Shown: one piece after another, positions 5,776 to 32,956 of the stretch
Numbering within the stretch: the first letter of the stretch is position 1
Layout: the number at the start of each line of letters is the position of its first letter
NCBI GenBank assembly: GCA_036554845.1
Contig: DATBMP010000339.1
Location: 1-33,275 of the forward strand
DNA length: 33,275 nucleotides
Direction: 5' to 3'
Source: Pyrinomonadaceae bacterium
Lineage (GTDB): Bacteria > Acidobacteriota > Blastocatellia > Pyrinomonadales > Pyrinomonadaceae
Translations under genes and position numbers: made by a program
Notes under the pieces: model-generated
Told to the model about the DNA's origin: nothing
The model's database searches: none
The model's input: the letters and a program-made list of their open reading frames with translations, nothing else

Positions 5776-5872
5776 ATTGCCGATGATTGATTGCAATTGG
5801 CGACTGGAGGACGCAACTGCTTTACTGACTACTGACTACTGACTTCTGACTACTTAACTACTTACTACTAAC
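5776..5872. repeat. Heptanucleotide tandem-repeat tract with two juxtaposed unit families: ATTGCCG-like, then ACTGACT-like
   Basis: The first family reads ATTGCCG ATGATTG ATTGCAA TTGGCGA (5776-5803). The second has seven units in 5824-5872, the first three being perfect ACTGACT (5824-5844). The tract lies between the ADOP stop (5771) and the RBS AAAGGAG of the next ADOP gene. Confidence 0.8.
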
Positions 5873-5889: not shown

Positions 5890-8340
5890 ATGCGCGGACT
5901 AAGTCGAGACATCCGGTACGCCATTCGAAACTTGATTAAACGACCGGCCTTCACCGCGATTGCTTTGGCTACACTCGCTCTCGGCATCGGCGCGAACACC
6001 GCAATCTTTAGCCTGGTCAATACCGTCCTCTTGCGACCACTTCCAGTTGCCGATCCAGAGAAAGTTGTCTCAGTCGCAGTTCGGGGAAAGGGCGACGCGA
6101 TCGGTGCGTTCTCGTATCCAAACTATCAGGACTTTCGCGATCGCAATCAGGTGTTGTCAAGCTTTCTCATCTACCGGTTCGTGCCAATGAGCTTGAGTGG
6201 TGCCGGCGGAAACGAACGGATCTGGGGCTACGAAGTATCAGGAAACTATTTTGATGTGCTCGGCGTGAAGGCAGTCAAAGGACGCACCTTCCTTCCTGAT
6301 GAAGATCGCACGCGGCTAACGCATCCTGTGATCGTGATCAGTCACGCTTCCTGGCAAAGGCGTTATGCTGCCGATCCGGATATCGTCGGGAAGGAAGTCC
6401 TCATTAATAATCATCCCTTCCAGATCATCGGCGTTGCTCCGCCCGAATTTCAGGGCACGGAATTCGTTTACATGCCCGAACTTTGGGTGCCGGTTTCGAT
6501 GATGGGTTGGATTGAACCGGGTTCTGGTTGGCTCGACAGTCGCAAGAGTGCGAACTTCTTCGGTATTGGACGTTTGAAAGATGGAGTGTCACTGGCCCAG
6601 GCAGAGTCGTCGTTGAATATTCTCGCGAGTGACCTTGCACGCGAATTCCCCGACAGCAATGAAGGACTGACCATTGTTCTGACCCCTCCCGGATTCATCA
6701 TTCCTGATTTGCGAGGGTCAGTTGTCAGCTTCACCTGGATTCTGATGGCCGCCGTTGCGCTCGTCCTTTTGATTACCTGCACCAACCTCGCTGGCCTGCT
6801 GCTGGCTCGAGCTACCGATCGACGCAAAGAGATTGCGATTCGACTTTCATTGGGCGCCGACCGGCGGCGGCTGGTCCGACAATTACTGACTGAGAACGTT
6901 TTGCTATCAGTCGTCGGTGGAGCACTCGGCTTCTGGTTGGCGCTTTGGATTATTAGACTCCTGTTGGCATTCAAGCCTCCGATCGATTTTCCGCTGACTG
7001 TGGACCTAAGCGTGGATTGGCGAGTTTTAGTGTTCACCCTCGCCATCTCGCTCATCACCGGCGCGTTGTTTGGTCTCGCGCCCGCGCTTCAGGCGACACG
7101 AGCAAGCATTACCTCGGCATTGAAAGATACTGCTGACCAGGGCGGCCATTCGCGTTCACGACTGCGCGGTACATTGGTGGTGGCCCAACTGGCAGTTTCA
7201 CTGATGATTCTGATATCGGCGGGATTGGTGGCCCGATCATTTGCAAAACTGCAGTCGATGAATCCCGGATTCGACCCTCGCAACGCGCTGACACTGTCGT
7301 TCGATCTCGGACTGCAGGGTTACGACGACGCCAGGGGCATGGATTTTCAGCGTCAAACTGTGGATCGAGTTCAGTCATTACCTGGCGTGAAGTCTGTTGC
7401 CATTGCTTCGAACATTCCCCTTTCCTTGAACTACAACAGCACCAACGTCTACGTTGAGGGTCACGCTCCTGAGCGAGGTGCGAACCTGCCTCAGGCGATG
7501 ACGGCTTCAGTGAGTCCAAAGTACTTCGCTACGATGGGCACCAGGATAGTCGAGGGTCGCGAGTTTACGGACCACGATAAGAAGGATTCAGAAAGTGTTG
7601 TTATCGTGAACGAGACTTTCGTGCGCCGAATCATTCCCGAAGCCAAATCGCCAGCCGACGCGCTCAATCGTCGAATCAGTTTCAGTGGTATACAAGGACC
7701 GTACTCGCTGATTGTTGGGGTCGCTAAAGATGGCAAGTACTTCAACATTGCCGAAGAGCCTCGTTCTTTTATCTGGTCGTCGATGGCCCAGGACAATACC
7801 AATGGTGGCAGCCTGGTAATCCGAACTGAAGGTCCCCCTGAAGCAACAATCTCAGCGGCAAGAAACGTAGTTCTCTCGGTGGATCCTAACTTACCGCTCT
7901 TTGATGTAAAGACCTTGGACGAGCATATGCAGTTCGCGCTCTTCCCATCTCGAGTGGCAGCATTTGTGTTGGGTGCGTTCGGTATCGTGGCGCTGGCACT
8001 CGCAGCGATAGGAATCTATGGCGTCACCGCGTATTCGGTTTCGCAGCGCACGCGCGAAATCGGAATTCGCATCGCCCTGGGCGCGCAGTTGGGTGACGTA
8101 TTGAGAATGATCCTGCGGACTGCGGTAATACTTACAACGATTGGAGTTGTGTTGGGACTGCTGGGAGCGTTTCTCTTGACGCGCGCGCTAAGCAGTTTAT
8201 TGAGTGGCGTCAGCGCAACGGACCCGGTGACCTTCATCATTGTGTCTCTTGTAATGATCCTGGTTGCCCTGCTCGCTTCCTACTTTCCTGCCAGACGCGC
8301 AACGAAAGTCGATCCGTTAATCGCGCTGCGGTATGAGTGA
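5890..8340 (+). CDS. ADOP family duplicated FtsX-domain ABC transporter permease
   Basis: RBS AAAGGAG lies upstream of ATG 5890. N-terminus MRGLSRDIRYAIRNLIKRPAFTAIALATLALGIGANTAIFS, 816 aa, C-terminus [15 protein letters not shown]. Confidence 0.88.
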   Translation: MRGLSRDIRYAIRNLIKRPAFTAIALATLALGIGANTAIFSLVNTVLLRPLPVADPEKVVSVAVRGKGDAIGAFSYPNYQDFRDRNQVLSSFLIYRFVPMSLSGAGGNERIWGYEVSGNYFDVLGVKAVKGRTFLPDEDRTRLTHPVIVISHASWQRRYAADPDIVGKEVLINNHPFQIIGVAPPEFQGTEFVYMPELWVPVSMMGWIEPGSGWLDSRKSANFFGIGRLKDGVSLAQAESSLNILASDLAREFPDSNEGLTIVLTPPGFIIPDLRGSVVSFTWILMAAVALVLLITCTNLAGLLLARATDRRKEIAIRLSLGADRRRLVRQLLTENVLLSVVGGALGFWLALWIIRLLLAFKPPIDFPLTVDLSVDWRVLVFTLAISLITGALFGLAPALQATRASITSALKDTADQGGHSRSRLRGTLVVAQLAVSLMILISAGLVARSFAKLQSMNPGFDPRNALTLSFDLGLQGYDDARGMDFQRQTVDRVQSLPGVKSVAIASNIPLSLNYNSTNVYVEGHAPERGANLPQAMTASVSPKYFATMGTRIVEGREFTDHDKKDSESVVIVNETFVRRIIPEAKSPADALNRRISFSGIQGPYSLIVGVAKDGKYFNIAEEPRSFIWSSMAQDNTNGGSLVIRTEGPPEATISAARNVVLSVDPNLPLFDVKTLDEHMQFALFPSRVAAFVLGAFGIVALALAAIGIYGVTAYSVSQRTREIGIRIALGAQLGDVLRMILRTAVILTTIGVVLGLLGAFLLTRALSSLLSGVSATDPVTFIIVSLVMILVALLASYFPARRATKVDPLIALRYE

Positions 8341-8344
8341 AGGA

Positions 8345-8584
8345 AATTTCGGAATGCGGGTTTCGGATTTCGGATTTGGAGTTGGGATTTGTAAGTTGTT
8401 GGTGGTTCGAAGACTTACTTAGGGTTTCTCGTGATGTGATTTAATTGGGTCGTATTTGTCCTCCTATTAAATGCCGGCTACGAGGCAACACCGAACTAAC
8501 CCAAATTCCAAATTCCAAATAATTCCACAATCCAAATTCCAAATTCCAAATTCCAAATTCCAAATTCCAAATTCGAAATCCAAC
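8345..8584. repeat. Inverted pair of heptamer tandem arrays, (CGGATTT)-like left arm and (ATTCCAA/GAAATCC)-like right arm, around a 107-bp spacer
   Basis: The left arm has 7 units in 8345-8393 (AATTTCG GAATGCG GGTTTCG GATTTCG GATTTGG AGTTGGG ATTTGTA). The right arm has 12 units in 8501-8584, including five consecutive perfect ATTCCAA units (8536-8570). The arms are approximate reverse complements. The right arm ends 10 nt before the ATG at 8595. Confidence 0.85.
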
Positions 8585-8594
8585 AAATAACCCC

Positions 8595-9971
8595 ATGCCA
8601 CGCATCCTCATCGCTGATGATCAAGCCGACGTGCTCGCCGCGCTGCGCCTCCTACTAAAAGGCGAACGTTACACGATTGAATCGGCATCCTCCCCCGCAG
8701 CCCTTCTCAAGATCGTTGACTCACAGGATCTGGATGTCGTTCTCATCGATCTCAACTACGCGCGTGACACAACTTCCGGAAGCGAAGGCCTGGATCTGCT
8801 GACCAAGATTCAATCGCGGGATCCCACCTTGCCAGTGGTTGTGATGACTGCATGGGGCAGTGTTGATCTCGCAGTCGAGGCAATGCGGCGTGGCGCCCGT
8901 GACTTCATCCAAAAGCCCTGGGACAACGCTCGCCTTCTGACAGTTCTGCGGACACAGGTCGAGTTGGCCCAGGCGATTCGTCGTGGCGAAAGACTTGAAG
9001 CCGAGAACATCGCCTTGCGCGACACCGCCGGCAGTGCTGGCGCGAAACCGGTGAGTTTGATTGCCGACTCGCAGGCGATGAAAAACATCGTCGCCATGCT
9101 TCATAGAATCGGGCCAGCTGATGCTAACGTTCTGATCACCGGCGAAAACGGAACTGGAAAAGAGGTTGTGGCCCGCGCGCTTCATGCACTTTCGTCTCGT
9201 GCATCACAACCAATGGTTTCGGTGAATGCAGGCGCGCTCTCGGCCGGTCTCTTTGAAAGCGAACTCTTTGGCCACGTGCGCGGTGCCTTCACCGATGCCA
9301 AGACCGATCGCGTGGGAAGATTTGAACTTGCAGACAATGGCACGTTATTTCTCGACGAGATCGCAAACGTACCACTCACTCTACAATCAAAACTGTTGCG
9401 TGTTTTAGAGACGGGCGAATTCGAACGAGTCGGATCTTCTCGCACTCACAAAGTGAACGCCCGAGTACTGTCTGCCACCAATGCCGACCTGCACGCGGAA
9501 GTTGCAGACGGAAAGTTTCGTCAGGATCTCCTCTTCCGTCTGAACACGGTCGAGATTCATATCCCACCACTCAGAGAGCGTCGCGAAGACATCGAGCCGC
9601 TGGCACGACACTTTCTATGGCAACATTGCGAACGTTATCGTCGAAATATCGACGGGTTCACCCCCGGCTCAGTCGAAGCGATGAAGGAGCACTCGTGGCC
9701 CGGTAATGTTCGTGAATTGGACCACGTCGTCGAGCGAGCGGTCTTGATGTCCTCCGGAGGAGTGATCACGGCGTTTGATCTGGCGCTGAAATCCGCGCGC
9801 GACTCTGGGTCGGCGGGGCGTATTGACGAGATGAGCCTGGAAGAAGTCGAACGACTCTTGATCAAGAAAGCTTTGGCGCGGTTTGGCGGCAATGCGAATC
9901 GAGCGGCAGAAGCGCTCGGATTAAGCCGCAGCGCACTGTACCGGCGGCTGCAGAAGTATGGGTTATCATAG
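8595..9971 (+). CDS. Sigma-54-dependent response regulator (NtrC family: receiver + AAA+ + Fis-type HTH)
   Basis: The receiver domain shows ILIADDQ...LIDLNY...KPW. The Walker A motif is GENGTGKE. A GAFTGA-like sigma-54 contact loop reads GAFTDA, and ESELFGH is present. The C-terminal HTH is NRAAEALGLSRSALYRRLQKYGL. Confidence 0.9.
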   Translation: MPRILIADDQADVLAALRLLLKGERYTIESASSPAALLKIVDSQDLDVVLIDLNYARDTTSGSEGLDLLTKIQSRDPTLPVVVMTAWGSVDLAVEAMRRGARDFIQKPWDNARLLTVLRTQVELAQAIRRGERLEAENIALRDTAGSAGAKPVSLIADSQAMKNIVAMLHRIGPADANVLITGENGTGKEVVARALHALSSRASQPMVSVNAGALSAGLFESELFGHVRGAFTDAKTDRVGRFELADNGTLFLDEIANVPLTLQSKLLRVLETGEFERVGSSRTHKVNARVLSATNADLHAEVADGKFRQDLLFRLNTVEIHIPPLRERREDIEPLARHFLWQHCERYRRNIDGFTPGSVEAMKEHSWPGNVRELDHVVERAVLMSSGGVITAFDLALKSARDSGSAGRIDEMSLEEVERLLIKKALARFGGNANRAAEALGLSRSALYRRLQKYGLS

Positions 9972-13439: not shown

Positions 13440-13672
13440 CGACCTTTACGGGCTTTGAAAGTCTTTTGGGTACGGCTCTGCCGCACCCTTGCGGTAATCC
13501 TAAGGCTTACCGTTATCCCAACCTGAATATCAGGCTATGCCTAAACTGTTCCATTTTTGAGGCATAGCCTCGATCAAAATATGTGAAGGTTCGGTAAGCC
13601 GCAGGCTTACCGCAAGGGTGCGGCCCGAGCCGGAACTCAAAAAAGGACTTTTTGTGCAAAGCGACCTTTACG
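13438..13672. mobile_element. MITE-like nested-hairpin insertion (209-bp body, 13451-13659) flanked by a perfect 13-bp direct repeat AGCGACCTTTACG
   Basis: The direct repeats are at 13438-13450 (overlapping the asd TAG stop) and 13660-13672. Three nested inverted repeats lie inside. The outer pair is GGCTCTGCCGCACCCTTGCGGTAA (13474-13497) with TTACCGCAAGGGTGCGGCCCGAGCC (13607-13631). The middle pair is GGCTTACCG with CGGTAAGCC. The inner pair is AGGCTATGCCT (13532-13542) with AGGCATAGCCT (13560-13570). No ORF with coding character is present. Confidence 0.6.
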
Positions 13673-13699
13673 ACAATCAAAGAGGTAAACAGATTCCAA

Positions 13700-13753
13700 G
13701 AAGCCACGAGCCTGCCAGCGTGAGGTACCAACGGGGCAAGCCCGTGGCATATC
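13700..13753 (-). terminator. Hairpin at the 3' end of the lys operon, between convergent operons; contains one copy of a 26-nt repeat
   Basis: On the minus strand, 13 nt after the aminotransferase stop, the sequence reads ATGCCACGGGCTTGCCCCGTTGGTACCTCACGCTGGCAGGCTCGTGGCTTCTT. GCCACGGGCTTGCC pairs with GGCAGGCTCGTGGC in 12 of 14 positions. An inner CCACGGG/CCCGTTGG hairpin is also possible. The stem is followed by TTCTT. Confidence 0.45.
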
Positions 13754-13765
13754 CGATAACCTTCG

Positions 13766-19962: not shown

Positions 19963-20037
19963 TCTTGGCAATTGCATCAAGCGCGCGCAGTTTGGGCACT
20001 CGAAATGATCACGTCGTAGCTCTCCACCGGTCAAAAA

Positions 20038-20192
20038 GATCTCGGTGACAGTCCTGCGGATTTAGCCACAGCAACCAACTCATCAGGAGAAGGTGTTCCT
20101 GGTTGAGCTTCGGCGACCTGCCCCTTTCATCTGGACCATTTGCACCTTCGTTTCGGGTGTCAGATTACTCTTGGAGGTCGCGCCTCTACCTT
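20038..20192 (-). promoter_or_regulatory. Lysine riboswitch (L-box) aptamer
   Basis: The minus strand reads GGTAGAGGCGCGACCTCCAAGAGTAATC...GATGAAAGGGGCAGGTCGCCGAAGC...GGACTGTCACCGAGATC. The blocks AGAGGCGC, CAAGAGTA, GAAAGGGG, GTCGCCGAAG and CTGTCA match the conserved L-box core as seen in the B. subtilis lysC leader. It is located upstream of lysC. Confidence 0.85.
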
Positions 20193-20223
20193 GATAGAAA
20201 GATCAGCTTGAAAAAGTTACTAA

Positions 20224-20253
20224 ACCTTAGCGACGACGGCTGCTCAGTGTCAA
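20224..20253 (-). promoter_or_regulatory. Candidate sigma-70-type promoter for the L-box/lys operon transcript
   Basis: The minus strand has TTGACA (20253-20248), an 18-nt spacer, then TAAGGT (20229-20224). It lies about 30 nt upstream of the aptamer 5' end. Confidence 0.4.
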
Positions 20254-20284
20254 GCGTTGTTTCTTCTGGTAGTACGTTCAGTTT

Positions 20285-20365
20285 CTCGCAGCTACAACGG
20301 GATCTGACTTTAATGGTTGGATGCCACGGGCTTGCCCCGTTGGTACTTCGCGCTCGCAGCTACAA
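20285..20365 (+). repeat. Composite repeat: 13-bp direct repeats CTCGCAGCTACAA flanking a 55-bp segment that carries the 26-nt core ATGCCACGGGCTTGCCCCGTTGGTAC
   Basis: The direct repeats are at 20285-20297 and 20353-20365. The core at 20321-20346 is identical to the minus strand of 13725-13750. The flanks are also partly similar, for example GTACTTCGCGCTCGCAG versus GTACCTCACGCTGGCAG. Confidence 0.7.
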
Positions 20366-20516
20366 AGAGAGCACGCAACTGGAGATGCTACGGGGCGAGG
20401 CCTTGGTATACATATATCCGCCTGCGACAGATCCGCGTCCGAAATTATGTTCGTGTCATTTCTCCGGTTTTCGTGGATTATGTTTCCAGTCTTAGCCGGG
20501 AAAGGAATTTAGCTTT

Positions 20517-22858: not shown

Positions 22859-22937
22859 ATATTGCCGATTGATGATTGCCAATTGCCGATTTCGGTAAGG
22901 ATCAATCCGTCAATCATCAATCGGCAATTGGCAATGT
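22859..22937. repeat. Heptamer-repeat palindrome (ATTGCCG/ATTGATG units) that can form two mutually exclusive perfect helices
   Basis: Bases 22861-22878 (ATTGCCGATTGATGATTG) pair perfectly with 22911-22928, giving 18 bp. Alternatively, 22876-22891 (ATTGCCAATTGCCGAT) pairs perfectly with 22920-22935, giving 16 bp. The element starts 28 nt after the aspartokinase stop. Confidence 0.8.
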
Positions 22938-23031: not shown

Positions 23032-24363
23032 TTGACGTCCACTCCGCAGCAACTCTGTATCGAACCCGCTTGTGGCGCGACATTTCCGCTCAATGATCGT
23101 CTCTACGTCTGTCCACGCTGTGGAGGCCTGTTGGATGTCCAACCAGCATCTCCATCAACTCTTGATCCGGATGAACTGAAGAGTCGATGGACCATGAGGC
23201 TCTCTTCTTTCGACGCGCGCGATCGCAGCGGTGTCTGGCGCTATCGTGAGTTGCTGCCTTTCCATGGCGACGCAAGAATAGTTTCGCTCCTCGAAGGCAA
23301 TACTCCGCTGTACGACGCAACGCGGTCCGCGAATTACTGTGAGATGCAAACGCTGACGTTGAAACACCAGGGTCTCAATCCAACCGGTTCCTTCAAAGAC
23401 ACAGGCATGACCACGGCCATCACGCAGGCAGTGCAACTGGGTGCCACCACCGTTGTTTGCGCGAGTACGGGAAACACTGCGGCGAGTCTGGCCGCCTATG
23501 CCGCGCGTGCCGGGTTGCCGTGCGCGATTCTTGTCCCTCGTGGGCAGGTGAGCCATGCAAAGTTGGCCCAGAGTCTGGATTATGGTGCTGAGGTGATCGA
23601 GATCGACGGGAACTTCGACGACTCGATGCGAGTAATTCGTGAACTCGCCGAAGATGAATCGATTTACCTCGTGAACTCGATCAATCCGTTTCGTATCGAA
23701 GGTCAGAAGACTGTCGCCGTAGAAATGCTTCACCAACGTGATTGGCGCGTGCCCGATCACGTCGTGGTGCCCGGCGGAAATCTGGGAAACAGTTCAGCGC
23801 TGGGGAAGGGCTTTCGAGAGTTACTCGAGCTTGGCGTGATCGATCGATTGCCACGGTTATCCGTAGTTCAGGCTGAAGGTGCTGCCCCGTTTGCTCAATT
23901 ATTTGCAATCGAGAAAGAAGATCATTTCACTGGCGCCGCGGAATTGGTTCCTGTAGAAAATCCCGAGACGCTGGCCACGGCAATCAAGATTGGCGACCCG
24001 GTATCCTGGAAGAAGGCATTGCGTGAAGTTCGAACCAGTGGCGGTAGGGTGATCACGGTTAATGAGCAGGAGATTGCTGACGCCAAAGCTGTGATTGGAA
24101 GAGATGGGGTTGGTTGTGAACCTGCGTCAGCAACAACAGTCGCCGGTATCAGGCAATTAGTTGCGAGTAAATTTATTGGACGTGACGATGATGTGGTCGC
24201 AGTTTTGACCGGACATGTGTTGAAGGATACGAACTACGTAATCAAATATCACGAGGGCGAATTGATCGTCGGTGAAGAACATCAGTTGTTGACAGGAGCC
24301 TTTCGCAATCCACCCGCTCGAGTTAAAGCAACGAAGGAAGCGATCCTCGAATACCTCAGATGA
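23032..24363 (+). CDS. thrC: Threonine synthase with N-terminal Cys4 zinc-ribbon-like segment
   Basis: The TTG start is preceded by GGGAAG. The N-terminal segment is CIEPACG...CPRCGG. The PLP-lysine region is NPTGSFKDTGM. GNTAAS and the overall 443-aa length are consistent with ThrC. Confidence 0.88.
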   Translation: MTSTPQQLCIEPACGATFPLNDRLYVCPRCGGLLDVQPASPSTLDPDELKSRWTMRLSSFDARDRSGVWRYRELLPFHGDARIVSLLEGNTPLYDATRSANYCEMQTLTLKHQGLNPTGSFKDTGMTTAITQAVQLGATTVVCASTGNTAASLAAYAARAGLPCAILVPRGQVSHAKLAQSLDYGAEVIEIDGNFDDSMRVIRELAEDESIYLVNSINPFRIEGQKTVAVEMLHQRDWRVPDHVVVPGGNLGNSSALGKGFRELLELGVIDRLPRLSVVQAEGAAPFAQLFAIEKEDHFTGAAELVPVENPETLATAIKIGDPVSWKKALREVRTSGGRVITVNEQEIADAKAVIGRDGVGCEPASATTVAGIRQLVASKFIGRDDDVVAVLTGHVLKDTNYVIKYHEGELIVGEEHQLLTGAFRNPPARVKATKEAILEYLR

Positions 24364-24605
24364 TTGACGATCTTCAATTTACGGGTGTGCGATTGAGGGT
24401 GTGCGATTGACGATCTTCGATTGACGAGTGACGATTTGTTTGTTGGTTGTGGACCGTTTGCCCGCCAGGGTGCGTGAGTGTATTCGATGAGAAAATCGCC
24501 GATCAACGAATCGAGAATCGTCAATCGAGAACCTTCAATCGACAATCGTCAGTCGTCAATCGAGCAAACGTCAATCGACACTCTTCAATCGCAAATTGCC
24601 AATTC
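24362..24605. repeat. Inverted heptamer arrays: (CGATTGA)-type left arm and (TCAATCG)-type right arm around a G/T-rich spacer
   Basis: CGATTGA occurs at 24390, 24404 and 24418 (14-nt spacing), with TGATTGA at 24361 containing the thrC stop. TCAATCG occurs at 24521, 24535, 24556, 24571 and 24585. The 11-mers CGATTGACGAT (left) and ATCGTCAATCG (right, 24516-24526) are exact complements. The right arm lies inside the thrB ORF. Confidence 0.8.
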
Positions 24606-25509
24606 CTTCTCCGTTCGCGTTCCGTCGTCGTCTTCCAACCTCGGTGCGGGTTTCGACTGTTTTAGTTTGGCGCTCAAACTCCACCTGACTGTTACCGCTA
24701 CGGTTGATGCAGGTGCGAGTGAACCATGTGTGGTTGTGAGTAGTGGTGAAGGCAGCGCGCAGCTTCCGTCGGCGGAGGACAACCTCATCTTTCGCGCAAT
24801 GCAGTTCATTGCCACTCAGGAGGATTGGCAGTTGCCTCCTGTTCGAATAAGTGTCGTGAATGAGATCCCGATTGGCCGAGGGCTTGGTAGCAGTGCCGCC
24901 GCAATCGTTGCCGGACTCACACTTGCTTCGCTGATCTGTGGGCAGAAGTTATCCGCAAATGAGTTGTTGCGTTACGCGTTCGAGATTGAAGGTCACGCTG
25001 ACAATGCCGCTGCTGGAGTTTACGGTGGGTTGGTTGTGAGCACTGTGAAGGCTGACGGCGACGTGGTAGTAGTAAAGCGACCATGGCCCAATGATCTGAA
25101 GGTGATTGTCGTTTCACCGGACGTGCAGTTGAAGACCGCGGATGCTCGACATGTGTTGCCGGAAATGGTTAAGCGCACGGATGCTGTATTCAACCTTCAA
25201 CGCGTCGCCTTGTTCGGGGCGGCATTGGAAAGCGGTCAATACGATCTGCTTTGGGAAGCGATGCAAGACCGGTTGCATCAGAAACAACGACAAGGAATGG
25301 TGCCGGGTTTGGCTGAAGCATTGGCAATTCCGAGGCAACCGGGATTGTTGGGAGTTGCGTTGAGTGGATCAGGTCCGAGCGTAGTGGCCATCGCGCAAGA
25401 TCACGCGCCAGCGATTTGGGAAGCTTTGGAGGCCAAGTTTCGCAGTCACGATCTGAAGGCAACCGTGCGGGTGCTGGAGGTTGATGAGGAAGGGTGCAAG
25501 GTGATTTGA
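24478..25509 (+). CDS. thrB: Homoserine kinase with an unusual repeat-encoded N-terminal extension
   Basis: The GHMP kinase N-terminus is FSVRVPSSSSNLGAGFDCF. Motif 2 is IPIGRGLGSSAAAIVAG. The only in-frame canonical starts are GTG 24478 and ATG 24487, which is 36-39 codons upstream of the conserved core. Confidence 0.8.
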   Translation: MYSMRKSPINESRIVNREPSIDNRQSSIEQTSIDTLQSQIANSFSVRVPSSSSNLGAGFDCFSLALKLHLTVTATVDAGASEPCVVVSSGEGSAQLPSAEDNLIFRAMQFIATQEDWQLPPVRISVVNEIPIGRGLGSSAAAIVAGLTLASLICGQKLSANELLRYAFEIEGHADNAAAGVYGGLVVSTVKADGDVVVVKRPWPNDLKVIVVSPDVQLKTADARHVLPEMVKRTDAVFNLQRVALFGAALESGQYDLLWEAMQDRLHQKQRQGMVPGLAEALAIPRQPGLLGVALSGSGPSVVAIAQDHAPAIWEALEAKFRSHDLKATVRVLEVDEEGCKVI

Positions 25510-25528
25510 GACGGTGGATTGCCGGGCT

Positions 25529-25718
25529 GGAATTTCGGATTTGGGATTTCGGATTGCGGATTTCGTGTCTGGTAAGGGACGCTGATTGGTTTAGCGTTCC
25601 TTACCAAACACGAAATCCGCAATCCGCAATCCGCAATCCGAAATCCGCCCCCCGCAATCCGCAATCCCAAATTCGAAATCCGAAATTCCAAATTCCAAAT
25701 TCCAATTTCCAAATTTCT
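25529..25718. repeat. Inverted heptamer arrays (GGATTTC/GGATTGC left; GAAATCC/GCAATCC/AAATTCC right) enclosing a 13-bp central hairpin
   Basis: Left-arm bases 25550-25568 pair perfectly (19 bp) with 25608-25626. The central stem GGTAAGGGACGCT (25571-25583) pairs with AGCGTTCCTTACC (25593-25605). The right arm continues with about 13 more heptamer units, ending 8 nt before the ATG at 25727. Unit sequences are the same family as at 8345-8584. Confidence 0.85.
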
Positions 25719-25726
25719 TCATTCTT

Positions 25727-26530
25727 ATGAATCTTAAAAAACTCAACTGGCAAATCTGGGCCGGGTTTCTGCTCGCGTTGTTGGGATCGCTTAGTTACAT
25801 TTTTCTCTTCGTTAACTACCCCATCACACGCGACTTTCCATGGGCCAACCTGTTGCTCTTTGCGATCGCGCTGGTTTTTCTGGTCGTCGGTCTTCGCCGT
25901 GCCTTCGCTTCTGATCGGCCGCGCCCGCTCCTGTCCAGGATTGGCGGATCCGTACTGGCAACGTTAAGCCTCGCCATCATGGGGCTCTTTATCTTTAGCA
26001 TCCTTGTGATGGCCAGATGGTTGCCATCGTCCAGTGGCGCTCCACATGTCGGTCAGAAAGCCCCTGACTTTTCACTTCAGGATAGCAACGGCAACCAGGT
26101 AACACTTTCTTCACTTCTCGCCACACCAATCAATGGCAAAGCTCCCAAGGGCGTCCTGTTGATCTTCTATCGAGGTTACTGGTGACCGGCATGCCACTCC
26201 GAGTTACGGGGTGTGCAACAAAAGTTAGCTCAATTTCACGAAGCGGGTATTCATCCAGTAGCGATCAGTGTAGATCCGCCGGAAACGAATCGCGGGATGC
26301 TGGCGCAAGCAGGGTATACGTTCCTGTTTCTTTCTGATCCGAAAGCGGAAGCGATTCGAAGTTACGATCTGGTCCATGCCGGGCAAGGCGAGAATGGAGG
26401 CGATATTTCTCGGCCAGCAGAGTTCATTGTGGACACGAGCGGCACGGTGCGTTGGGTAAATTTGACTGAGAACTATTGGGTTCGAGCACGCCCTGAGCAG
26501 ATCCTTGAAGTGACAAACACGCTTCGTTGA
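25727..26530 (+). CDS. Membrane-anchored peroxiredoxin-like (AhpC/TSA, PRX_like2-type) protein with in-frame TGA at 26183-26185: candidate selenoprotein (UxxC); alternative is a nonsense pseudogene
   Basis: ORFs 25727..26185 and 26213..26530 are in the same frame, separated only by one TGA. The read-through product is ...GQKAPDFSLQD...VLLIFYRGYW-U-PACHSELRGVQQKL...ISVDPPE...FLSDP...PAEFIVDTSGTVRW. This places the TGA exactly at the first Cys of the W-C-P-x-C redox motif. Three N-terminal TM helices are present. Confidence 0.6.
26189..26216 (+). promoter_or_regulatory. Candidate bacterial SECIS-like hairpin immediately downstream of the in-frame UGA
   Basis: GCA (26189-91) pairs with UGC (26214-16), with a 3-nt bulge. 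The 7-bp stem is CACUCCG (26195-26201) with CGGGGUG (26207-26213). The apical loop AGUUA contains GU. The loop starts 16 nt after the UGA. Confidence 0.4.
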
Positions 26531-31852: not shown

Positions 31853-32932
31853 ATGCCACGCATAGTTTTTCGCGGAGCAGCCTTAGTCGTTGCACTCATA
31901 ATCTACTCGTTGACATCGACGTCAGCGTTAAGCAGCTCAACTGGCCAAGCTCAAACGCCTCGACCGCCTTCTCAACCCGAATCCGGTCCGGGCGGTAAGC
32001 AATATGCGCACGGCGGTGTCATAAAGAATCGTTACGGTTCGGGTGGCGAAGAGTACTGGATTTTTGAACCCGACTCGCCAAAGCCCAAGTCTGCGCCTCT
32101 CATTGTCTTCATTCACGGTTGGGGTGGCATGAATCCGTTGTACTACGGCGCTTGGTTGGACCATCTGGTTAAGCGCGGAAACATTGTCGTCTATCCAAGA
32201 TATCAGGCCGGTCTTCTTACTCCAGTTAGAGAGTTCAGTCCGAACACGATCCGCGCAATCAAAGCCGCAGTCACTCGATTGGAATCTGAGCCCGGTCATG
32301 TAAAGCCAGTCTTGAAAAAGTTTGCTGTGGTGGGCCATTCGATGGGCGGACTGTTAGCGGCCAACGTTGCGGCTTTGTCGACCGAATCCGGTTTGCCGCA
32401 AGCGCGCGCGGTGATGTCTGTTGAACCTGGCATCACTGAGCACCCGGTAAACTTTCCGCTTGCTGATCTGAAGAAGATTTCAAGTGAGACTCTCCTGTTG
32501 GCGATTGCCGGTGATCAGGACACGCTGGTCGCTGACATAGATGCGAAAAGAATTTATCTGGAATCCACTCGAGTTCCGGCAGCCAACAAGGATTTCATCA
32601 CGCTTGTAACCGATGATCGGGGAGTGCCTGCTTTGCGTGGAAGTCACCGTGCTCCGACAGCTCCTGATCCAAGTTACGATAACGGTGAAGGCGCTCGGGG
32701 GGTGCCGAATCGGGGCGGTGGATCGTCGACTCCACAGCGTCGTGGCGAGATCCCGGCGATTGATGCCATGGACTTTTATGGGACGTGGAAACTGTTTGAT
32801 GGTCTGTGCGACGCCGCGTTTGATGGAAAGAATCGTGAGTTTGCTTTAGGCAACACACCGCAACAGCGCTTCATGGGAAAGTGGAGTGACGGCGTGGCGG
32901 TGAAGGAGTTGAAGGTGACTGATACGCCCTGA
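31853..32932 (+). CDS. Secreted alpha/beta hydrolase
   Basis: The signal-like N-terminus is followed by a Pro/Ser-rich linker. An oxyanion-region HGWGG is present. The nucleophile elbow is GHSMGG. Length is 359 aa. Confidence 0.7.
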   Translation: MPRIVFRGAALVVALIIYSLTSTSALSSSTGQAQTPRPPSQPESGPGGKQYAHGGVIKNRYGSGGEEYWIFEPDSPKPKSAPLIVFIHGWGGMNPLYYGAWLDHLVKRGNIVVYPRYQAGLLTPVREFSPNTIRAIKAAVTRLESEPGHVKPVLKKFAVVGHSMGGLLAANVAALSTESGLPQARAVMSVEPGITEHPVNFPLADLKKISSETLLLAIAGDQDTLVADIDAKRIYLESTRVPAANKDFITLVTDDRGVPALRGSHRAPTAPDPSYDNGEGARGVPNRGGGSSTPQRRGEIPAIDAMDFYGTWKLFDGLCDAAFDGKNREFALGNTPQQRFMGKWSDGVAVKELKVTDTP

Positions 32933-32956
32933 CCACTGACAACTGACCACTTCCTA
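32929..32956. repeat. Short heptamer array CTGACCA CTGACAA CTGACCA CTTCCTA overlapping the hydrolase stop codon
   Basis: The TGA stop (32930-32932) is the TGA inside the first CTGACCA unit. The unit family matches the ACTGACT array at 5824-5872. The array ends at the ATG of the next ORF. Confidence 0.65.

Follow-up and report, generated by a model that had tools for sequence, protein, structure and literature searches.

Tandem arrays of heptanucleotide units were found at six sites, designated A to F, in a 33,275-nt stretch of DNA from a Pyrinomonadaceae bacterium (contig DATBMP010000339.1; the whole stretch is referred to as the window), together with one two-unit trace. Judged from their sequence, the arrays are probably slippage-prone microsatellites resembling the long simple sequence repeats (LSSRs) of bacteria and the short tandemly repeated repetitive (STRR) sequences of cyanobacteria. 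They would have expanded recently in the spacers between genes, and the hairpins and the leaders lacking a Shine-Dalgarno (SD) sequence that go with them would be incidental. Periodicity, placement and complementarity of the arrays, their unit-number polymorphism, their lineage specificity and a bias in their orientation were all observed directly.

Heptanucleotide arrays in the window

A preliminary description of the sequence had drawn attention to the spacer of 254 nt between the third ADOP permease gene (5890-8340; TIGR03434, 958 bits) and the gene for an NtrC-type sigma-54 response regulator (8595-9971), and both gene labels were confirmed. Array A in this spacer consists of a left G/T-rich arm (8345-8392) with about seven CGGATTT-like units, beginning 5 nt past the permease stop codon, and a right A/C-rich arm (8499-8584), in which about 12 units resembling AAATTCC extend to a point 10 nt short of the ATG at 8595. 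Tandem Repeats Finder (TRF) detected 6.6 copies of ATTTCGG at 8346-8390 and 11.6 copies of CCAAATT at 8501-8583 (83% matches). Five perfect consecutive AAATTCC units are present in the right arm, or six if counted in the CCAAATT phase. Unit numbers and perfect units were therefore as first described, and the arms are indeed approximate reverse complements, matching at 71-79% over 45 nt. The 106 nt between them (8393-8498) are unique, since Blast searches matched only this locus and its strain variants.

In a sliding autocorrelation scan of the 33 kb, tandem periods of 7, 14 and 21 only were obtained, and no other period from 2 to 21 gave hits. TRF resolved nine array segments with 3.3 to 11.6 copies each. 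By both methods, 7-nt units are joined head to tail beyond the length expected by chance, as in LSSRs. The further arrays with other units that had been noted near 5776, 22859, 24362 and 32929 were present, as was the second locus with CGGATTT-type units at 25529-25718, designated array B.

Array B follows the thrB stop codon. Its left G/T-rich arm (25528-25566; by TRF ATTTCGG at 25528-25565) is composed of GGAATTT, CGGATTT, GGGATTT and CGGATTG units, and its right A/C-rich arm (25611-25718; by TRF 25611-25715, AATCCGC grading into AATTCCA) contains about 15 units, which grade from AATCCGC to AAATTCC and end 8 nt before the ATG at 25727. Between the arms, a non-heptamer stem-loop of unique sequence (25567-25610; gtctggtaaggGacgc...gcgtTccttaccaaac) forms the apex of a long hairpin. 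Array C has a left arm (24360-24432; by TRF 24362-24427) of GATTGAC and GATCTTC units with a 14-nt super-period, and a right arm on the plus strand (24505-24602; by TRF 24508-24591) of AATCGTC and AATCGAG units lying in frame within the called thrB open reading frame (ORF; ATG 24487). In array D, the left arm (22859-22893; by TRF 22861-22891) starts 28 nt past the stop codon of the aspartate kinase gene with ATTGCCG, ATTGATG and ATTGCCA units. The reverse-complement units form the right arm (22905-22937), about 95 nt before the TTG start of thrC at 23032. Array E comprises a left block (5776-5822), 5 nt past the stop codon of the second ADOP gene, of degenerate ATTGCCG/ATTGATT-like units belonging to the unit family of array D. 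It continues with 6.6 copies of TACTGAC (5823-5869; TRF, 85% matches), followed by the SD sequence AAAGGAG (duplex -8.2 kcal/mol) and the ATG at 5890. Array F (32929-32955; by TRF 32929-32951, 3.3 copies of CTGACCA) occupies the entire 23-nt spacer from a stop codon (TGA, 32930-32932) to the ATG at 32956. The trace, also part of the preliminary description, consists of two AATCGGA units (403-416). They lie in the spacer that directly precedes what is probably the real start of the first ADOP gene (ATG 426). This start is placed around 426 because the Pfam domain MacB_PCD begins at residue 53 of the long ORF, compared to residue 22 in the paralogues.

Non-coding sequence, as defined by the ORF list and by JGI gene calls on strain contigs, amounts to approximately 3054 of the 33,275 nt (9.2%). 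All six major sites are located within it, the right arm of array C excepted, and under random placement the probability of such a distribution is about 6e-7 (0.092^6). Array sequence makes up about 19% of the non-coding bases. The arms start 0 to 28 nt after a stop codon, several finish 3 to 20 nt upstream of the next start codon, and at 24361-24363 (stop of thrC) and at 32930 the stop codon TGA is at the same time part of the first unit. Thus, the location is mainly non-coding, as in LSSRs. The placement at gene boundaries that had been proposed holds for the sites overall, with a correction for the right arm of array C, which lies at the 5' end of the called thrB ORF. Because of this one arm, it is not strictly true that the arrays are never coding.

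Inverted arm pairs are present at four of the six sites (A, B, C, and D), and arrays E and F are single, without an inverted partner. Complementarity had been expected to recur at further loci, and it did. The arms of array B are 80 nt long, match at 83% and are 9 nt apart, those of array C match at 73% over 51 nt, and those of array D at 100% over 18 nt (75% over 28 nt). All four pairs fold better than dinucleotide shuffles, with z values of -2.3 for A, -12.2 for B (-115.6 kcal/mol), -5.3 for C, and -3.7 for D. Variant units follow each other in mirror order in paired arms, as seen in the perfect 18-nt match of D and the 80-nt arms of B. No consistent strand asymmetry in folding was detected, minimum free energies and arm duplex energies of the plus and minus strands being about equal at the arrays. 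Since folding is equally good on both strands, the complementarity represents plain DNA symmetry without a G-U signature, and selection of the stems at the RNA level was rejected on these grounds. Second copies of the spacers of A, B, C, and D were not detected by Blast in all sequence compared.

Known expression signals were also searched at the arrays. A consensus scan called no intrinsic terminator at any arm pair, the totals were at shuffle level, and no T tail was seen. What comes after the 3' arms is either A/C-rich sequence or a start codon, and the earlier suggestion of terminator-like hairpins was not supported. Matches to the sigma-70 consensus at the arrays were not beyond chance and no promoter hexamers flank them. 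Neither intrinsic terminators nor sigma-70 promoters exceeded the counts expected from shuffles, and both were rejected as the identity of the arm pairs. A sigma-54 promoter or enhancer at array A was rejected as well, because the motif TGGCAC-N5-TTGCW with up to two mismatches was found 22 times in comparison to 17 expected hits, none of them in array spacers. Over the whole window, sigma-70 consensus promoters are scarcer than in shuffles (1 and 3 found, 6.7 and 7.3 expected), which suggests that promoters of this organism differ from the E. coli consensus. The only Rfam hit in the window was a lysine riboswitch (20009-20196, minus strand), and no family was matched at the arrays. The start codons adjoining A/C-rich arrays (8595, 25727, and 32956) show no SD pairing, unlike those of most other genes in the window.

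Unit-number changes and age of the arrays

Ten independently assembled metagenome contigs, 98.6-100% identical to the window, served as strain set. Their alignments contained at most one indel each, always of 14 nt and in register with the units. The identical sigma-54 regulator protein is encoded on eight metagenome contigs, six of which were aligned and found to be 99.6-100% identical over up to 9.5 kb. The sole indel among these six is located in the right arm of array A, where two additional AAATTCT units (+14 nt) are present in L001 and L004. L005 begins inside this arm and contains the same AAATTCT variant units. Four contigs (L206 to L209), reached via a 98%-identical ThrC, are 98.6-99.2% identical to the window. 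In L206 and L207, one indel each was observed, two units (14 nt) being absent from the left arm of array B, and L208 and L209 showed none. Two independent in-register indels, in A-right and B-left, are thus documented among near-identical strains. This is the unit-number polymorphism known from LSSRs, and it bears out the slippage-type variability that had been suggested. Array E (5823-5869) is of unchanged length in L004. Contig breaks within arrays recur, as in L005, at the start of L208, at the end of L209 and at the ends of L206 to L208, which suggests that repeats are shared with other places in the genome. The right arm of array B is among the arms in which strain contigs break.

To relatives with about 70% ThrC identity (L016 and L012), the thr region of the window presents a clear difference. 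The genes for aspartate kinase and ThrC overlap by 4 nt in these contigs and the gap between thrC and thrB is 17 nt, versus 200 nt and 123 nt at the corresponding junctions of the window, which consist mostly of array. No arrays are present at these two junctions in the relatives. In 830 kb of related contigs, no more than six period-7 arrays were detected, all of them short and located away from these junctions, in comparison to about nine segments in the 33 kb of the window. From the tight and array-free operon of the relatives it follows that the window arrays are young, lineage-specific expansions. Operon punctuation as a conserved function, one of the roles considered before, does not agree with arrays that are not kept at orthologous junctions.

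The right arm of array C is situated between the only canonical thrB start (ATG 24487) and the first residue of the thrB model. The called ThrB protein has 340 amino acids (JGI gene calls), and the match to TIGR00191 begins at residue 41. The preceding extension (24487-24606) comprises 40 residues, about 31 of which are encoded by the array and constitute a peptide with 7-residue periodicity (xSxIxNR-like); relatives carry an unrelated 24-residue tail at the ThrB N-terminus. No canonical start codon is found between array C and the conserved VRVPSSSSNLGAGFD motif, and ATT at 24595 is the only start-like codon there. Consequently, thrB either has a non-canonical start or adds the translated arm to the N-terminus of its product. 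In phase-variable contingency loci, simple repeats within an ORF or between promoter elements switch expression; here, gain or loss of one or two units in this arm would shift the thrB frame, and no length variant was detected in four strains.

Origin of the arrays and alternative explanations

When genomes, each species being represented by one, were searched for runs of four AAATYCS units, at least 119 stretches were revealed, and 857 kb around them were analyzed. Among the matches listed, the CGGATTT/GGAATTT unit family occurs in Acidobacteriota (Pyrinomonadaceae, Thermoanaerobaculia, Vicinamibacterales, and others), Verrucomicrobiota, Planctomycetota, Bacteroidota, Chloroflexota, Patescibacteria, Myxococcota, and proteobacteria, and no non-repeat DNA is common to the window and these loci. 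In the 857 kb around these listed matches, period 7 is dominant, with 314 arrays as opposed to 67 at most for any other period. About 155 period-7 arrays are left once the searched unit family is removed, and 28 of 30 neighbouring unit-family arrays within 400 nt of each other are inverted. Three Pyrinomonadaceae loci (L089, L098, and L124) display the order of stop codon, G/T arm, spacer, A/C arm, and ATG 3 to 9 nt further on. L151 resembles them except for a short A/C arm that ends farther from the start, and the genes on either side of L095 are convergent. A whole spacer can also be taken up by a solo A/C array in this family.

Two further observations were made in these searches. A second heptamer family, CACAGAT or CACAGAG, forms nested or adjacent inverted arms placed outside or between CGGATTT-type arms (L095, 2360-2590; L189, 1029-1202; L130, 7176-7351). 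The CGGATTT-type family is also carried by 21 putative viral contigs from IMG/VR (L210 to L230). Numerous heptamer units of other types are found in them as well, several arrays are inverted pairs, and the total is 90 period-7 arrays in 218 kb. Examples are L218 (995-12567), with 13 arrays of GCGCATG-type units in 14 kb, and L225 (952-8506). Three of the putative viral contigs come from the sample series of the strain contigs of the window (33000368xx).

If the arrays are microsatellites, replication slippage would create them and alter their length. Because a 7-nt unit shifts the reading frame, they would persist only outside genes, and tolerance only outside reading frames would leave them packed between stop and start codons, growing in a spacer until a stop codon, an SD sequence or a start codon is met. 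From the mirror order of variant units in paired arms we infer that one arm was copied from the other. Inverted duplication or hairpin-templated (quasi-palindrome) copying could be the route, after which each arm would have slipped independently. Selection would act mainly as a filter, and near start codons an orientation placing the G-poor, A/C-rich strand in the mRNA would be tolerated. Intercistronic stem-loops in DNA or RNA, unstructured leaders without SD sequence, and expression drifting with unit number are probably incidental consequences. Slippage, templated copying and the lack of a dedicated function are to this extent deduced, and the orientation filter next to start codons appears to leave room for real effects on translation or mRNA structure.

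Several points weigh against this explanation. Not every array is visibly unstable. Arrays C and D are constant in length, with at most two substitutions among strains diverged by about 1% (four contigs). Of the genome itself, one contig of 33 kb and short strain contigs were covered. Pure neutrality leaves unexplained that the G/T arm precedes the A/C arm in seven out of seven cases (arrays A and B of the window and the Pyrinomonadaceae loci). The recurrence of CGGATTT/GGAATTT units across many phyla, as it appears in the sequences compared, is not explained by it either. The same is true for the orientation before start codons. In a mixed-phylum sample, 39 of 52 unit-family arrays located at most 60 nt upstream of starts have more C than G on the sense strand (p = 4e-4), a statistic obtained, like all those across phyla, with crude ORF models in which arrays were masked since they are open in several frames. 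A strand bias was also looked for in arrays just past stop codons, and none was found.

A dedicated hairpin function, a protein platform and a mobile element were weighed as alternatives, and all of them are rated lower than slippage-prone microsatellites. The first, which is the strongest of the three and still rather unlikely, regards the arm pairs as functional RNA elements of polycistronic transcripts, the G/U arm at the stop codon pairing with the A/C arm at the next start. The stem-loop could keep 3' exonucleases away from the upstream cistron, or RNase III could cut it, as a form of operon punctuation. Alternatively, a terminating ribosome could melt the base of the stem and free the leader without SD sequence, resulting in translational coupling. 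The layout fits this idea, because arms are found 0 to 28 nt past stops and 3 to 11 nt before starts at A, B, L089, L098, and L124, the three window genes adjoining A/C arrays lack an SD sequence that most others have, and the arrays sit within what is a single operon in relatives. The very stable predicted stems, the uniform arm order and the C-rich sense strand of pre-start arrays point in the same direction. However, folding is without strand asymmetry, and relatives do without arrays at the same junctions. The arms of array A are unequal (7 versus 12-14 units) and only 71-79% complementary, with a fold z of -2.3. Between array D and thrC, 95 nt intervene, the right arm of C is downstream of the only canonical thrB start, and E, F and many arrays elsewhere are solo. 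Furthermore, the opposite arm order is found in 9 of 28 inverted pairs elsewhere.

The arrays could also serve as periodic platforms for a protein binding single-stranded nucleic acids, with the unit number setting occupancy, which we consider improbable. Cold-shock-domain proteins (about 7 nt per domain), S1 on A/C-rich leaders or Rho on a rut-like, G-free and C-rich arm would be candidates. The strict 7-nt register speaks for this idea, one unit family in many phyla would fit a conserved trans factor, and the sense strand is G-poor before starts that have no SD sequence. There is also a precedent, since S1, Csp or CsrA has been proposed to bind TAACTGA heptamers (MacGregor 2015, PMC4679880). 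On the other hand, at least five unrelated unit families occur in the window and dozens elsewhere, so that the period and not the sequence is the constant feature. No candidate protein is tied to the arrays, and post-stop arrays lack a strand bias. Equally doubtful, and drawn from sequence comparison, is the idea that the layout of stop codon, G/U arm, A/C arm and start without SD sequence, together with the multi-phylum units and the pre-start orientation bias of the mixed-phylum sample, marks a widespread undescribed post-transcriptional device. If so, SD-independent translation of the downstream gene might be coupled or gated by a register-tolerant stem, or the device might be a Csp, S1 or Rho platform, in both cases tunable by unit number.

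Even less probable is a small non-autonomous mobile or dispersed palindromic element with heptamer arrays as terminal inverted repeats, resembling MITEs (miniature transposable elements with inverted repeats) or the repetitive extragenic palindromic (REP) sequences and bacterial interspersed mosaic elements (BIMEs). Two genomes do contain a whole arm-spacer-arm unit twice, with unrelated flanks: the Acidobacteria metagenome-assembled genome (MAG) SZAS-13 (L145, 5124-5239 and 7480-7588) and a Chloroflexia MAG (L121, 5067-5155 and 6752-6844, in opposite orientation). The copies are 2-3 kb apart and the limits of homology coincide exactly with the outer arm ends, which hints that such units can be copied or mobilised. 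In the window, by contrast, none of the four spacers (A to D) has a second copy in the sequence compared, target-site duplications were not noted in the flanks, no transposase or RAYT is encoded, and the polymorphisms are changes in unit number, not presence or absence of an element; many arrays, moreover, are solo. Finally, assembly artefacts from low-complexity reads, which frequent contig ends inside arrays might suggest, are effectively refuted by identical arrays and unique spacers assembled independently from at least nine metagenome samples and by the same architecture in a complete long-read chromosome (OZ252004.1, L186) and in isolate genomes (Flavobacterium caeni, L134).

Gene context and comparison with known heptamer repeats

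Apart from the arrays, the window contains genes for three ADOP permeases, a two-component pair, META, and asd, and a minus-strand dap/lysC operon with a lysine riboswitch at its head. They are joined by the thr region in the order proC, aspartate kinase, array D, thrC, array C, thrB, array B, and an AhpC/TSA-like gene. The closest named relatives by ThrC are Pyrinomonadaceae MAGs with 72-77% identity. The riboswitch (RF00168, 85 bits) precedes an operon of lysC, M20 peptidase, dapB, dapA, dapD, and aminotransferase genes, and a plus-strand ORF overlapping it (20103-20495) is probably spurious. In the convergent spacer between asd and an aminotransferase gene, a long non-heptamer inverted repeat is present (13440-13765; ggtacggctctgccgcacccttgcggtaa ... 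ttaccgcaagggtgcggcccgagccgg), which may be a bidirectional terminator or another palindromic element. Downstream of array B, ORFs 25727-26185 and 26213-26530 share one frame and are separated by a single TGA (26183-26185) within 'FYRGYW-TGA-PACHSELRG'. This TGA creates a UxxC redox motif in an AhpC/TSA/redoxin fold (Pfam positions 1-37 before and 48-123 after it), a stem-loop begins 7 nt past the UGA, and a weak hit to SelL-related redox proteins was obtained. By these features, 25727-26530 probably encodes a membrane-anchored selenocysteine protein and is not a pseudogene.

The arrays of the window, a real and statistically solid feature, extend an already described class of heptamer repeats by new units and by another phylum. 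They provide a clean example from Acidobacteriota with a direct change in unit number between co-occurring strains, and evidence for recent invasion of arrays into the junctions of a formerly tight thr operon. To this they add a cross-phylum hint of selection on orientation next to start codons, and the occurrence of CGGATTT-type units and the inverted-pair layout in many phyla. In practice, metagenome assemblies are interrupted at such arrays, and start codons can be miscalled because of them, as for thrB. Should arm pairs really gate translation or transcript stability, phyla in which SD sequences are little used would have in them a simple and evolvable dial for expression.

REP and BIME sequences of enterobacteria are intergenic or intercistronic, form hairpins, often as inverted pairs, and stabilise upstream mRNA. 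REP sequences are imperfect palindromes of 20-40 nt with a conserved head and are mobilised by RAYT transposases. The resemblance to these elements stated in the preliminary description extends to intergenic inverted repeats and no further. The window arms are tandem 7-mers and not such palindromes, their spacers are unique, they vary by unit number, and a Pfam search of the window proteins found no Y1_Tnp/RAYT or transposase domain. MITEs and other dispersed elements were likewise rejected for the window, its spacers being single-copy in the sequence compared and free of target-site duplications as far as noted on reading the flanks.

Heterocystous cyanobacteria harbour STRR units of the sequences CCCCAGT, TTGGTCA, and CAACAGT. 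The likeness of the window arrays to STRR sequences, recognized from the outset, was upheld. STRR sequences (Calothrix and Nostoc; cited in PMC4692102) are tandem heptamers scattered over intergenic DNA, each genome having a small number of unit families, and the window arrays show the same pattern. The copy number of STRR sequences is variable and has been used for strain fingerprinting. CTGACCA of array F is one base off a rotation of the TTGGTCA reverse complement, and TACTGAC of array E has a CTGAC core. In a strict sense the arrays are not STRR sequences, their units being CGGATTT/GGAATTT, GATTGAC, ATTGCCG, TACTGAC, and CTGACCA in a non-cyanobacterial host. Unlike in Nostoc, where few arrays are paired, four of the six window sites have inverted arms, and the dominant CGGATTT/GGAATTT units are not of the STRR type.

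Heptanucleotides are the most abundant class of long simple sequence repeats in most bacterial genomes and are attributed to polymerase slippage, according to Mrazek (2007) as cited in PMC4679880. In marine Beggiatoaceae, some Cyanobacteria, and some Bacteroidetes, arrays of TAACTGA are described that lie immediately upstream of start codons (MacGregor 2015, PMC4679880), and in the same paper CspB is cited as binding with one protein per heptamer. Similar to the arrays described here, they are intergenic, mostly a few nucleotides upstream of starts in one orientation, and patchy across phyla, and they were proposed to be leader or translational elements, which matches window-type A/C arms 3 to 11 nt before starts without SD sequence. 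The TAACTGA family is built from one unit only, most of its sets comprise 2-6 copies, and among 170 sets just one is inverted. The window, in contrast, combines different units, reaches 15 copies and often has its arrays in inverted pairs.

In a full-text literature search with dimers of the main window units, only an unrelated primer was retrieved, and no paper linking heptamer repeats to Acidobacteria was found. The preliminary description recognized no described equivalent either, a statement to be revised in view of the units common in Acidobacteriota MAGs and of the genus Xanthomonas. In Xanthomonas campestris and X. axonopodis, approximately 186 mostly intergenic GGGAATC arrays per genome are present, and in 70-75 cases per genome two convergent inverted arrays can form a stem-loop (Rehm et al. 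2015, PMC4692102). Array lengths vary between species, the single or paired type is kept, and the function is reported as unknown; the GGGGAYT arrays of Nostoc include few inverted pairs (PMC4692102). Intergenic tandem 7-nt units and convergent inverted pairs, the latter at four of six sites, are shared by the window, and a GATT/AATC core is common to the Xanthomonas units and CGGATTT, GATTGAC, and ATTGCCG. The Xanthomonas units have G3 tracts and were studied as G-quadruplex formers, whereas the dominant window units have GG only. The window arms hold at most one or two GGG runs, so that the four G3 tracts per array of the G-quadruplex-forming repeats of Rehm et al. (2015) are never present. 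The window also differs from Xanthomonas in having several unit families side by side, in arms abutting stop and start codons, and in its phylum.

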